Source: a virus (lineage: Duplodnaviria > Caudoviricetes). From it: a DNA stretch of 64,000 bases. Numbering within the stretch: position 1 is the stretch's first letter; the number at the start of each line of letters is the position of its first letter. Below, one piece after another: positions 39,183 to 61,294 of this stretch. The notes beneath the pieces are model-generated. The model was not told where the DNA came from. It worked only from the letters and a program-made list of their open reading frames with translations, and made no database searches. A program made the position numbers and the translations under genes. The DNA lies in IMG/VR virus record IMGVR_UViG_2902759955_000002, positions 96,001 to 160,000 of that record; one strand, written 5' to 3'.

Positions 39183-39310
39183 CACCTGCTTGAGTGGACG
39201 GGCAGCGGACACGAATCTTTGCTCCAGCAATAAGGGAAGGAAGTAATAAAAAGAAAACGACGTTTTCTTCTATGTCCCGAGAAATCAAATTCTTCACACT
39301 ATTTATCAAG

Positions 39311-40516
39311 ATGAACCACAAACTGCTGCTGGTGAAGTGCATTACGCTCCTGTTCCGTGAGAGCCAGCTGCCGGGGGGTCATGAGAATTCCGCCACCTTG
39401 GTGCGCAACGTCATTGCGAATATCAAGGAAGCTCAGATCTCTATCGGTCTGGATCACGAACGCGAAGTCACCATCGCACTCAAGAAAATGGCGATCACCA
39501 TGTGTGAGACGCCCCCTGATCACGAACACGATGTGGACGAAGCGCTGCAGCAACTGAAAGTTGCGTGCGGCGAGGATGAAACGCTTTTTGATTCGTTTCG
39601 CGAAGGGATCGAAAAGGAACTGACTGAAAACCGCACGAAGAAGATGGCGCTGAATCTGCGCCGCTCTTTGAACGAGTATTTCCGCGAGGAGAAGATCCAG
39701 GAGATCATCTTCAACGCGTCGAACAAGCTGCGCTTTAACCGCGGGCAGGTCATGAACATGAAACAGTTCGTGGCTGAAACCGTGGCGCTTCTCGAGCCGT
39801 ATCAGGTCGACAGCGAAACGAAGGATCCGGCGATTGTCGCTTCGGTCAATCTCGCCATGGCCGAAGAGGTCAAAACGATCTTCAAGAATGTGCAGAAGGC
39901 CGAGCAGGGCGGGGGGATTCTGCGCACGGGATGGCAAGGCGTGAACCGCATGTGGCGGGGTGGCTTTCGCCGAGGTCAAGAAGTGGTGATCGGCGCGCTG
40001 CAGCACAACTTCAAAACCGGCTTCTCGCTCGGGGCCTTTATCGGCGTGGCACTTTTCAACACGCCCGAGACAGCATTCCCGGAAATCCTCACACCGAAGA
40101 AGCCGCTGCTCTATCGGGTCTCCTTCGAAGACGACCTCGAGCTGAACTTCCAGTACATGTACGAAGTGCTCATGGCCTACGACGGGCGTGAGAACGAGAT
40201 TGTCGTCAAGACGAAGGAAGACTTCGAGGCGATGACCGCCGAAGAGCTCGAAGGCTATATCGACAAGATCTCGGCGTACGTGATGGAGCGCATGCGCGTC
40301 AATGGCTTCGAAGTGATCATGGAGCGCGTGAATCCGTCGAACTGGACGTACATGCATCTGTGCAATCGGATGCTCGAACTCGAATCCGACGGCTACGAAG
40401 TGTTCATGTGCATGGCGGATTACCTACCCATGTTGCCGACCACGGGCTGTCTGCAAGGTCCGGCCGGCACGGACATGCAGGACATGTACCGTCGTATCCG
40501 TAACTTCATGTCGGCT
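39311..40516 (+). CDS. dnaB: DnaB-like replicative helicase, exon 1
   Basis: RTGWQGVNRM..GGFRRG, variant Walker A GALQHNFKT, SFEDD, MADYL; interrupted after RNFMSA. Confidence 0.88.
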
Positions 40517-40896
40517 TAAAGTAATTTGAAAAACTTGTCAAGGGATTCGAATTCCAGGCCCTCGTGTAGGAAACTACACAAGTAAAACTCTTTGAATTGA
40601 CGGGAAACCCCTGAGAGCTCTTCCTACCAAACGCATGGAGCAATTCATGCGCGGCCAGCGTAATGACCTGGGTACGGTAACAAAGGAAGAGATTGGGCAA
40701 TCCGCAGCGAAGCTTCTCTGTGAGAAGAACGTTCAACGACTATGGCGTGACTGCCAGTACCGAGCAAGCGCTTGGGAAGTGAAGAGCACCTGACCGGCCA
40801 CTGCCGAAGGTGAAGATATAGTCTGCTCCATTGGGAAAGCCAATGGCGGGTGTCATCGCACACCGGCTCCGTCTAGCGAACGGAGTGGACAACAGG
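40517..40896 (+). ncRNA. group I self-splicing intron without an ORF (probably subgroup IA)
   Basis: P AATTGACGGGAA 40595, Q AATCCGCAGC 40699, R GTTCAACGACTA 40731, S AAGATATAGTC 40813; U before the 5' site, terminal G; removal restores the frame. Confidence 0.9.
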
Positions 40897-41274
40897 AAGA
40901 AGATCGCGTTCCCGACCCCGCACCAGCTCTCGACCGACGCCAAGCAGATGATCCGCGATGGCAAGAGCGACTTCGTCAAGGAGTTGCCGGGTAAGGGCTA
41001 TTACAAGGGCTGCAAGCAGATTGATCAAGAGGTTGATCTGGAGACGTATATCCACATCGAGAAATCGAACAACGAATCGTTCCTGACGATCCAGCGGGGC
41101 AAGCATCGGCTTATCGGTCAGACCAACCCGAAGGATCTCTACTGCGTGCTGCCTTTCACGAAGTACGGTTTGGCGTTTGATGTGGATCGTGCCGACACCA
41201 CGCGCAAGAAGGTGGGCGGCGGTCCGATCGGCAGCAACGAAGAAACCCCGTTCTGGGAAACGATGGAAGCGTAA
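40897..41274 (+). CDS. dnaB: DnaB-like helicase, exon 2
   Basis: KKIAFPTPHQLS, IDQEVD, QRGKHR (C-terminal helicase motifs). Confidence 0.88.
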   Translation, partial: KKIAFPTPHQLSTDAKQMIRDGKSDFVKELPGKGYYKGCKQIDQEVDLETYIHIEKSNNESFLTIQRGKHRLIGQTNPKDLYCVLPFTKYGLAFDVDRADTTRKKVGGGPIGSNEETPFWETMEA

Positions 41275-55050: not shown

Positions 55051-55635
55051 TCAGCGCCAGCGCGGCACCATCGGGGACACATAGCCGCCTGCGGGGAACA
55101 CGCCAGCACCAGCGAGTGCGCCCGCGTATCCAGGCATCGACATCGCATGGACTGTGCTTTCGTCGAGCGCTGCGCCGCTATCGAGCCACTCACGGAACTT
55201 TTCATCGATGCAATATCGAACGACGGTCGGACACTGACTCGCTGAGATCGGCAGATAGATGCCCGGACGGTTGCGCAGGCTCATATAGCCCTTGCTCTCG
55301 AAGAAAGCATCGGCGAACCGGAGCAGATCATCTGCGCCTTCTGCGATCACGTCGCTGGAGAATTCGAAATGCTCGCGCAACAAAGGAGAGATGCCATCAC
55401 CGCAACGCAAGAACTCCGAGGGCTGCACATTGAAGACGCGCGCAACATCCACGAACTGGTCCAAGGTGATCTCGCTCGCGCCTGACTCGAGCTTGCTCCA
55501 CCACGAGGGTGACCTATCGAGTTGCTCAGCGAGAAAGGCCTGCGTGAGACCGCGCTCCAGTCGCACCTCTTTTATCAGGACACGATAGACGGAGGAGACG
55601 TTCGTTTGCAGCTTGGCCTTTGCTTCATTGCTCAT
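55051..55635 (-). CDS. XRE-family HTH protein
   Basis: IKEVRLERGLTQAFLAEQLDRSPSWWSKLESG; AAGGA RBS. Confidence 0.82.
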   Translation of the reverse strand: MSNEAKAKLQTNVSSVYRVLIKEVRLERGLTQAFLAEQLDRSPSWWSKLESGASEITLDQFVDVARVFNVQPSEFLRCGDGISPLLREHFEFSSDVIAEGADDLLRFADAFFESKGYMSLRNRPGIYLPISASQCPTVVRYCIDEKFREWLDSGAALDESTVHAMSMPGYAGALAGAGVFPAGGYVSPMVPRWR

Positions 55636-55807
55636 GGTGTTTTCCTTGTGACTTCGTTGGTGTAGTAAAGACTCGACACACATCTTCAGGAGAGTGATGT
55701 GTGCCTGAGATTGGTTTGGATCAGGTATCGCGTGAATCGGGACGAAAAAAAGCCGACCTCTTTCGAGACCGGCTTTCTACTTCTTCAACTATCTTCCCGT
55801 TACAGCT

Positions 55808-58749: not shown

Positions 58750-59270
58750 GCGGCACTCGTGCGCTGGGCGAGGTAGTTCTCGATCGTAGCCCGTGCGGCC
58801 TGCGTGAGGGCACTGCCATGTGGCGGGTGAACAAGCCGGCTCAGCATGGTCAGACCCAGGCCCTGTTCGAGCAGATTCGCAGCTTCGATGGCCACGAGAT
58901 CGGTCCGGTCTAACTCCGTGATAACGAGCGTCTCGTTCGTATGGCGATGAACCATCGTGAGCGATCCCTGCGCATCCAGAATCGCCTGCGGCCGCTTGGT
59001 CACGCAGAACAGGTAGGCCAACCATTCGGCGCGCTCGCCGATCAACTGCTGGACCACTTCGCGCTCGCCGAGCCGTACGCCGTCAAACTTGAACGCGTTC
59101 GTGCCGTAGATCGAATGGAAGAGACCCGCCAGCTGCACCTGCTCCGGATAGCCCCATTCAGCCAGCAACTTCTCGGTGCCCAGCAGATGCATGATGAACG
59201 CGCGACCGGTGTGACGCGTCATGCCGGTGCCGCGCTCACGCAGGAAAGAGAGGATGAGTTCGCGGTTCAT
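58746..59270 (-). CDS. DUF6817-like (HD-related) protein
   Basis: HTGRAFIMHLLGT..LL..W...AGLFHSIYGT, R..VQQLIGERAE.L.YLF. Confidence 0.7.
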   Translation of the reverse strand: MNRELILSFLRERGTGMTRHTGRAFIMHLLGTEKLLAEWGYPEQVQLAGLFHSIYGTNAFKFDGVRLGEREVVQQLIGERAEWLAYLFCVTKRPQAILDAQGSLTMVHRHTNETLVITELDRTDLVAIEAANLLEQGLGLTMLSRLVHPPHGSALTQAARATIENYLAQRTSAA

Positions 59271-59872
59271 GCTGCCATTCCTTTCGGAACGACCAACCGA
59301 GGCGCCACCTGCGATTTGAAAACGACACACTGACGCAACTCCGGACACTCGCGTGTCGGCGCGTTCGCTTTGTGCGGGATGTGTCCCGGGAAGCTCACGG
59401 CGCGGAACGGCATCGCCGGGACCGCCTTCAGGATGTCGCGCTCGCCAAAGTCGAAGAACAGCGTCTCGCCGCCCCAGGAACCCTTCCACTGGTCGGCCGC
59501 GTAGATGATCGTCGAGTAGTAGTTTTCCGTGTCCTTGTTGTCGACGTGCACGTAACCTTCGATGCCGTACGTGTGGGCATTGGCATAAACGCGCAGCGGC
59601 TCATGCCCCTGCAGAATGGTCTTGGACAGCAGGTCCCACAGTCGCGCGATAGGGACGGCGTTACGGTTGTTGGCCAGCTCGTCCGCACAACCGGTCCGGT
59701 TGTTGTGGTCGCCACCAGCGAAGTGCGCATGCCAGAACTGGAACCGGTCGTTCTTCGAGTTCGACTTCCAGCCGTACCGCCAGATGTTGCGCTTGAGCAA
59801 GGCAAGGATGGATGCCTTGAGTTCTTCGGGCACGAAGTTATCGTGCACAGCTATGCGTTCGGCCAGCGACAT
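59267..59872 (-). CDS. 2OG-Fe(II) dioxygenase (prolyl-hydroxylase-like)
   Basis: RVYAN, HVD, WGGET, FPGHIPH, R..VVFK. Confidence 0.85.
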   Translation of the reverse strand: MSLAERIAVHDNFVPEELKASILALLKRNIWRYGWKSNSKNDRFQFWHAHFAGGDHNNRTGCADELANNRNAVPIARLWDLLSKTILQGHEPLRVYANAHTYGIEGYVHVDNKDTENYYSTIIYAADQWKGSWGGETLFFDFGERDILKAVPAMPFRAVSFPGHIPHKANAPTRECPELRQCVVFKSQVAPRLVVPKGMAA

Positions 59873-59879
59873 TTGTTTG

Positions 59880-60548
59880 CTCGTTTCTGAGGGTTCGGGT
59901 TTTACCGCATCCCGCAAAGCACTGTAGTGAACCAAGGCCAATTCCCTGCTCTGATGGAGAAACAGCAGAACAAGGAGGGCACAGGGGACCAGCGTCACAC
60001 AAGACACTGACTCTTACGCACGAGTGTCTCCGAGGAAACACGCGCATGCGCACAGAACCGCAATGCACTGCAGGCTGCGCACTGAGAGCGGTGGCTCGAT
60101 CAGTGGCATGTGCCTTGGCACACGCACTTCGCACAACTTCCTGGTGACATCTTCAAAGCCAGGCGTACCGATGAAGGGGACATTGCGTCAGCCTTCGCAG
60201 TCCGTTCTTCCGCCCAAGGAGAACGTTGGCCATAATCGGTGATAGATAGGCGACCGTGACCAAGACGACTTAAACAACGAGAAGGGTTTCAAGATGGTCC
60301 ATCAAGGAATGCGTCACTCGCTGTCTCCCGACAGTGATCGCGCCCGCGCGCGGGTGACATACTCTGGCTTCTCGTAACTACCCGGGATGCGGTCCCAGTG
60401 TCGTCAAGGTTTCGCAGGCCTTTCACCTGGGTGAGGCGACTGGATACGCGGCATTGCACCACGCACCAACCCACTGGGGACTCGAACCCCTCATCAGACA
60501 GTTTCCAAGCGATGGCTGGCATCGCTCGCATACCATTACGTACAGGGT
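59880..60548 (-). ncRNA. candidate large structured ncRNA or leader
   Basis: ~670 nt with no credible ORF, many hairpins (GNRA loops) and long-range complementarities. Confidence 0.5.
60469..60548 (-). ncRNA. tRNA-like module (pseudo-tRNA-Leu(CAG)-like)
   Basis: D arm CGTA-ATGGTA-TGCG, anticodon arm GCGAT-GCCAGCC-ATCGC, long variable arm, T arm GGGG-TTCGAGT-CCCC; weak acceptor stem, no CCA. Confidence 0.55.
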
Positions 60549-60553
60549 AATTC

Positions 60554-60742
60554 TTACTGCAACAGTCGCATTACTTCGCGCAGGCGTTCGTAGGTCAGCC
60601 CCGCGTTCGCTCGCGCGGTGCCCGGCGGACAAAGCAACAGGTAATCCGTCCAGGCGGAGGCGGCTGCATCGAGCGAACGCTGTGCGCGCACGCGCGCCAT
60701 CTCGATGGCGTCTTCTTCGCTCAGAAAGTTGTCGTGAACCAT
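60554..60742 (-). CDS. small hypothetical protein
   Basis: 62 aa, follows the membrane protein gene. Confidence 0.5.
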   Translation of the reverse strand: MVHDNFLSEEDAIEMARVRAQRSLDAAASAWTDYLLLCPPGTARANAGLTYERLREVMRLLQ

Positions 60743-61197: not shown

Positions 61198-61294
61198 AGG
61201 GGGTCCCCGTAGATAACGTGTTGCACAGGATTGCCACCCGGACTGCGAGGAACAAAAAAAAAGAGGGATCCTCTCCTCTTTTGTGCCTGATCAC

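Follow-up and report, generated by a model that had tools for sequence, protein, structure and literature searches.

The window analysed here is a stretch of 64,000 nucleotides (nt) from a Caudoviricetes virus record (IMGVR_UViG_2902759955_000002, positions 96,001 to 160,000). At 59873-60553, between minus-strand genes, its minus strand lacks a conserved open reading frame (ORF) and carries instead a conserved RNA of ~640 nt, the first part of which is a predicted hammerhead ribozyme with an unusual stem II (Table 1). The ORFs within this gap, on both strands, encode only 34-98 amino acids and have no protein-level match in the six homologous loci described below (best E-value 0.01, over the nucleotide-conserved core). 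By comparison, the neighbouring oxygenase-like protein scores 1e-81 to 1e-85 in the four of these loci that hold a full-length copy; in the remaining two the search gave an E-value of 0.06 (locus L007) and nothing significant (L059). The gene-free gap noted in the initial annotation of this DNA is thus real, with nothing but short ORFs that lack protein-level conservation.

The gene downstream of the gap encodes a 2OG-Fe(II) oxygenase-like protein, which matches phrog_274 (E-value 6e-20) and, weakly and under the cut-off, PF13640 (E-value 0.0015). Upstream lie a 62-amino-acid ORF (60554-60742) and a membrane-protein gene, both on the minus strand. The 62-amino-acid ORF has no match in Pfam or PHROG and none in the six homologous loci; it may be spurious or specific to the phage of the window. 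Upstream of the membrane-protein gene, at 61259-61282, lies a terminator-like hairpin that has U-runs on both strands; the transcription unit containing the RNA may start there. The window corresponds to bases 161115-225114 of contig C11 (286 kb) within a 7.68-Mb bacterial assembly. Because the G+C content of C11 (~58% throughout) differs from that of the assembly (62.9%), and because the proteins encoded by C11 include virion proteins, a major head protein of phiKZ type and internal head proteins like those of phiKZ, it is most likely the complete or near-complete genome of a phiKZ-like jumbo phage, co-assembled with its host. Four tRNA genes (Gln, Ser, Asn and Tyr; C11:229472-229840, minus strand) are found ~7.8 kb upstream of the RNA.

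A search with the oxygenase-like protein identified two IMG/VR jumbo contigs, L002 and L003, in which ~580-600 nt free of ORFs separate the same membrane-protein gene from three tandem oxygenase paralogues. In both contigs this ORF-free stretch, at the same syntenic place, aligns with the beginning of the gap in the window. The paralogues span 2753-4597 in L002 and 2711-4591 in L003; L031 and L047 also have three, the window one. Further members were obtained by pattern scans built on conserved blocks. Group A comprises the window, L002, L003, L007, L031, L047 and L059; its six non-window loci are mostly jumbo-phage contigs, and L059 is a contig from a Caballeronia arationis assembly. Aligned over their full length, the group A sequences have a mean column identity of 58% and many indels that are not multiples of three. 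The last upstream ORF stops 55-95 nt before the ribozyme; it is the membrane-protein gene in L002, L003, L031 and L047, and a different ORF in L007 and L059.

A strict pattern of the core matched 20 IMG/VR contigs (13 of them >200 kb), gave one match in the 7.68-Mb assembly and was absent from 400 of 400 other genomes of the host family. None of 40 relatives searched gave a match. DNA searches of the GenBank phage set with the gap plus its flanks, or with group B (see below), found no match, and with the 5' core as query RSF1 was the only one. RSF1 belongs to group C, which includes the cultured Ralstonia phages RSF1, RSL2, FLC4-4C and RsoM3USA and Burkholderia phage FLC6. Here the element occupies ~500-630 nt between annotated genes, and in RSL2 and FLC4-4C a short hypothetical ORF overlaps its end.

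Folding of the minus strand is clearly better than that of shuffled sequence. The whole gap gives z -4.16 (0/20 shuffles as good) and the 3' 274 nt z -4.25 (0/200). On the plus strand the corresponding values are z -0.91 and z -0.57 (57/200 for the latter). Of nine helices proposed when the sequence was first read, eight have full complementarity in the window, and the ninth, CGUUCUCC/GGAAGAACG, is present as a hairpin in the computed folds. The non-nested pairing GGGACC/GGUCCC did not hold up: relatives keep only 3-5 of its six positions and it competes with a covarying helix, so we regard this pseudoknot as unsupported. The broader proposal, that the minus strand of the phage encodes a large structured RNA, is borne out, since ~640 nt are conserved in the six other group A loci and covary.

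Covariation is strong in the 3' domain. Over the seven group A sequences its 69 pairs are formed in 93.5% of the cells; 29 pairs changed on both sides, compared with 2-6 in slid controls, and 0 of 500 shuffles matched this. Two features of the domain, the CGCAGCC closing helix and an AAGUUGU motif, recur in the same order in groups B (L012, L018) and E (L126-L129), where CGCAGCC, read by eye, again pairs with a distant GGCUGYG-like strand. A search with the 3' domain (nhmmer) reached group A only and did not connect the groups; the links of this domain to groups B, C and E are short shared motifs plus the helix, recognized by eye. A pattern of the 3' domain returned 62 stretches, four of which were group A loci already known, and nhmmer added no member. 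In group C the part that follows the predicted cut measures ~215 nt and ends in a covarying hairpin and a U-run before the next ORF, which argues for a discrete RNA.

These data bear on whether the stretch might be coding sequence, a decayed gene or an attachment site with a tRNA fragment, as could be thought from the minus-strand ORFs of 80 and 98 amino acids, from the extra oxygenase paralogues beside the element in relatives and from a hairpin that resembles a tRNA T-arm (hairpin A, see below). However, the small ORFs show no conservation as proteins, and a tblastn search with the paralogues gave no match to the gap at E-values up to 10; the gap is therefore not a decayed copy. ARAGORN predicts no tRNA or tmRNA gene in the window, L002 or L003, no second copy was found in the host assembly, where the best match (34 nt, E-value 0.1) is at chance level, and the covariation fits RNA helices. 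We consider an explanation of this kind highly improbable.

Hammerhead ribozymes share the strands CUGANGA and GAAA, a pair A15.1-U16.1 and a nucleotide other than G at position 17; position 7 is the one free position of the consensus. By its sequence, the 5' 250 nt of the RNA (60502-60253) has the strand order of a type I hammerhead ribozyme and holds every core element, stem II excepted. When these 250 nt are isolated and folded freely, the exact hammerhead layout is obtained, with both core strands (CGAAA included) and C17 unpaired. The core had been overlooked in the initial annotation, as had the fact that two of the listed helices, hairpin B and stem III, are stems of the predicted hammerhead. 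Ahead of the ribozyme, UAUGC is invariant in 7/7 group A sequences, the sixth base being G in 6/7 (A in L047), and in each of them a hairpin of differing sequence follows. Between hairpins A and B, compact members have a linker of 3-13 nt and extended members one of 36-59 nt. Within the insert of stem III, the CUGUC-GGGA-GACAG hairpin (60334-60321) is kept in 7/7 group A sequences, with 5/5 pairs in six of them; the insert as a whole is missing from compact members and from group E.

Table 1. Features of the RNA and its downstream gene, in window coordinates and in the order of the minus strand.
Feature	Position	Strand	Remarks
5' flank: conserved UAUGCG, then hairpin	60532-60527; 60526-60508	-	From alignment and window fold
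Stem I, 5' strand ACUGU	60498-60502	-	Pairs with 60257-60253, one G-U
Core strand CUGAUGA (C3-A9)	60491-60497	-	Invariant save position 7
Hairpin A, GGGG-UUCGAGU-CCCC	60476-60490	-	4-bp stem; 7-nt loop matching the tRNA T-arm consensus
Long variable hairpin between hairpins A and B	60431-60474	-	Single hairpin in folds
Hairpin B, CAGG-UGAAAGG-CCUG	60415-60429	-	Second T-loop-like 7-nt loop; first of the helices listed initially
Core strand C-GAA-A (G12 A13 A14 A15.1)	60410-60414	-	Invariant in all members
Stem III, 5' strand ACC-UU-GACGAC	60400-60410	-	Pairs with 60269-60259; includes the GACGAC/GUCGUC listed initially
Structured insert in stem III, ~130 nt	60270-60399	-	Hairpin CUGUC-GGGA-GACAG and helix ACGAGAAG/CUUCUCGU
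Stem III, 3' strand GUCGUC-UU-GGU	60259-60269	-	Ends in U16.1
Predicted cleavage site, C17 (60258) / A1.1 (60257)	60257-60258	-	Placed by hammerhead geometry
Stem I, 3' strand ACGGU	60253-60257	-	Covariation with 5' strand
Linker past the cut, local hairpins	60174-60252	-	Poorly conserved save ACCGAUUA-like motif
3' domain, 12 helices, multi-branch core inside closing helix	59906-60173	-	Covariation, folding z
Hairpin and GGAAGUUGU motif	60130-60169	-	Signature feature of 3' domain
Long closing helix starting CGCAGCCUG	60079-60062 with 59923-59906	-	Signature feature of 3' domain
2OG-Fe(II) oxygenase-like gene	59267-59872	-	ATG 33 nt past closing helix of RNA

The predicted stems were compared over 19 members. 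Stem I is paired in 95/95 cells and hairpin A in 76/76, each with nine different stem sequences. Hairpin B is paired in 74/76 cells, with A-U/G-C and C-G/U-A/U-G exchanges, and the first four pairs of stem III in 68/76. Slid controls gave 22-40/95 for stem I and 17-39/76. In all 23 members CUGANGA is invariant apart from N7 (U, A or C). L002 and L003 also carry the core, though they were found via the neighbouring protein and not by the motif. The invariance of CGAAA has to be read with the search patterns in mind, which had required it. The pair A15.1-U16.1 is present in 19/19 members and position 17 is U in seven, C in six, A in six and G in none; these counts are partly by construction, because the site search accepted only sites with U16.1, four or more stem I pairs and no G at position 17. 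For the window, 0/300 shuffles of the downstream sequence gave a cleavage/stem III site of equal quality, and the same was seen for five other members with a long stem, L007, L059, L012, L009 and L022; for L023 one shuffle in 300 equalled the site.

Two members stand outside the 19-row counts: L005, which has an ambiguous site (either one close by, with a stem III of 2 bp, or one at a distance of 351 nt), and L053, the sequence of which stops after 76 nt. For L018 the site picked by the script (184/300 shuffles) was wrong and the site read by eye was used instead. In the 5' domain, misalignment of the inserts by MAFFT kept RNAalifold from recovering stems II and III, and the evidence for this domain is therefore given per sequence. 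A loose pattern, applied in metagenome and genome scans, returned 37 stretches, of which six are members (L030, L031, L035, L047, L053 and L059) and the rest are chance matches in coding sequence or a tRNA-like stretch. L010, L011, L019 and L021, which lack hairpin A, were likewise rejected as chance matches.

From A9 to G12 the strand runs directly into hairpin A, then through 3-59 nt, hairpin B and one C into GAAA. A 7-nt loop with U first, A at position 5 and a closing G-C pair is the T-loop pattern, and both loop A and loop B have it in 19/19 members. Position 2 of loop A and position 6 of loop B are combined as U:G (10 members), G:C (10) or G:A (3) among the 23, with no other combination. 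This pair switches jointly at least four times within close groups (window versus L007/L059, L012 versus L018, RSF1 versus RSL2/FLC6 and L006 versus L013-15). Loops A and B thus appear to dock in the manner of the T and D loops of the tRNA elbow. Loop A fits U-[U/G]-C-R-A-N-N closed by G-C, and loop B of the window ends in GG, like G18 G19 of the D-loop. Unlike in tRNA, the hairpins sit in a ribozyme junction instead of a cloverleaf, acceptor and anticodon arms are absent, and the contact is read from covariation alone. Paired T-loops also occur in T-box stem I and in RNase P.

Of the small ribozymes the hammerhead has been studied best, and a contact between its stems I and II is considered necessary for the active fold. 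We suggest that the loop-loop contact would brace the ribozyme in place of that contact. Neither a hammerhead bearing T-loop hairpins nor a non-coding RNA of RSL2 or RSF1 was described in the literature searched, which did not extend to the supplementary figures of PMC3088659, where hammerhead variants are shown and a similar form could be present.

A number of observations weigh against a cleaving ribozyme of this design. There is circularity in the evidence, as most members were gathered by patterns that fix the core. Support for the site is weak in L002 (32/300) and L003 (17/300), the site shuffles were mononucleotide, and this control is invalid for compact members, where the site lies in the unshuffled part. 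A fold of the whole RNA constrained to the hammerhead is 16.8 kcal/mol above the free minimum, and the 5' 250 nt by itself is not unusually stable (z -0.97, 34/200). The Rfam hammerhead models score none of the members scanned (16 loci, and compact L013 and L127 at E-values up to 10). The single stem II that defines hammerheads, leading from A9 to G12 via a 10.1-11.1 pair, is absent: the pairing partner of position 10.1, by covariation (A-U, G-C, C-G, U-A), lies at the 3' end of hairpin A and is not the C that precedes GAAA. Lastly, G:A is not a Watson-Crick pair, and the loop contact is for that reason a geometric guess.

The non-canonical stem II and the silence of the Rfam models, together with big inserts in stems II and III that could hinder the active fold, are also what would be expected of a structural relic, that is, a non-cleaving non-coding RNA in which the core nucleotides serve folding or protein binding. 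Against a relic stand the catalytic-core positions, all of which are kept with variation at position 7 only, and the constancy of the A15.1-U16.1 pair and of a non-G at position 17, both partly by construction. On balance we find a relic quite improbable.

No family in Rfam 15 accounts for the RNA. At gathering and permissive thresholds, scans of the window, 16 loci, L013, L127 and L012 returned tRNAs, one group I intron elsewhere and noise, and in the gap itself nothing was found at the gathering score or at E-values up to 10, the Intron_gpI model included. With the type I hammerhead (Hammerhead_1) the 5' domain shares the order of strands, stems I and III, an open stem I, A15.1-U16.1 and a non-G at position 17. 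It differs in that two T-loop hairpins, with an optional third between them, replace stem II, an extra C precedes GAAA, stem I has only 5 bp and lacks the usual loop contacting stem II, and, in the window, stem III carries the 130-nt insert; no Rfam hammerhead model scores it. Hammerheads with a long insert in one stem, termed discontinuous, are known from mammalian examples. They resemble the present RNA in having an intact core and a helix that encloses >100 nt, whereas here the insert lies in stem III (and II), the RNA is from phages and the insert itself is conserved. Judged from sequence, we conclude that this is probably a hammerhead form absent from Rfam 15, which leads a conserved large RNA of jumbo phages.

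GOLLD and ROOL are large and ornate RNAs that often occur in phages, close to tRNA genes. The likeness to GOLLD-type RNAs drawn in the initial annotation holds as a concept, in the size of several hundred nt, the many helices, the phage origin and the proximity of tRNA genes (on the same strand within ~1.3 kb in 9/16 related loci scanned). It does not extend to family membership, because no Rfam model of these families matches the window or the related loci scanned, and the present RNA starts with a hammerhead-like core, a feature that the GOLLD and ROOL families are not known to have. In L020 (3735-3826) 13 nt separate the end of a tRNA gene from stem I; in the near-identical L018 the upstream sequence differs and the tRNA is 320 nt away. 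In L016 (3945-4997), as in L013 and L017, ~1 kb with no ORF >91 amino acids separates a compact hammerhead from a tRNA array, and this stretch may be a much longer non-coding RNA of that lineage.

Two other features of the window lie apart from the RNA. The group I intron returned by Rfam (Intron_gpI, 80.7 bits) is at 40537-40846 on the plus strand and splits a divergent DnaB-like helicase gene: compared with PF20307, ORF 39194-40519 covers profile positions 2-238 and ORF 40831-41274 positions 239-350. A CI/Cro-type helix-turn-helix protein (HTH_31, HTH_3) is encoded at 55051-55683 on the minus strand of this phiKZ-like jumbo phage.

Taken together, the data are best described by a conserved minus-strand RNA of ~640 nt in which a hammerhead with two T-loop hairpins probably cuts its own transcript and so releases a 3' non-coding RNA. 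Cleavage would occur between C60258 and A60257. The two products would be the upstream message, its 3' end still carrying the bulky ribozyme, and a structured RNA that begins with a 5'-OH. The released part of ~350 nt (60257-59906) would contain the multi-helix domain closed by the long helix. We propose that this 3' domain is the functional product, a stable phage non-coding RNA, and that the ribozyme would be its 5' processing device.

The choice first offered was between a non-coding RNA and a complex leader. As a cis-acting leader, the whole element would control the translation or stability of the next gene through its 3' domain, perhaps as a ligand- or factor-sensing switch, and the ribozyme would trim the 5' end. 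In the window 33 nt lie between the closing helix and the oxygenase ATG, in L002 and group E the next start codon is ~25-40 nt away, and the near cut predicted in L005 lies just ahead of GGAGG and ATG. In groups A and E the distance of 25-40 nt from the end of the RNA to the next start codon counts against a free-standing non-coding RNA, since it fits a leader too. However, the next gene is not conserved: it is an oxygenase paralogue in the window, L002, L003, L031 and L047, a phrog_13483-like gene in L007, a 251-amino-acid ORF in L059 and others in groups B, C and E. In group C the covarying terminator-like hairpin and U-run part the RNA from the next ORF, and in L013, L016 and L017 the ribozyme precedes ~1 kb without long ORFs and then tRNA genes. 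Because the downstream gene varies and group C has a terminator-like end, we favour a stable non-coding RNA over a gene-specific leader, which seems unlikely.

We also entertain a more far-reaching proposal, which is doubtful at present: the RNA may be the first example of a new class of ornate RNAs, 0.3-0.7 kb in length, in phiKZ-like jumbo phages, matured by a new hammerhead subclass in which stem II mimics a tRNA elbow. This elbow would do more than brace the fold, being read by the machinery that recognizes such elbows. RNase P, T-box-like RNAs or ribosomal sites would be possible readers. If this were true, the elbow would link the cleavage or the use of the RNA with the tRNA programme of the phage.

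A natural hammerhead subclass in which docking T-loop hairpins stand for stem II would, if true, be a new solution to the folding of this ribozyme, and one that escapes current family models. Large structured phage RNAs are few and their roles mostly open. In RSF1, RSL2 and FLC6 the place of the element is unannotated or partly covered by a short hypothetical ORF. The 3' domain is a large, covarying RNA outside known families that is present in cultured jumbo phages.
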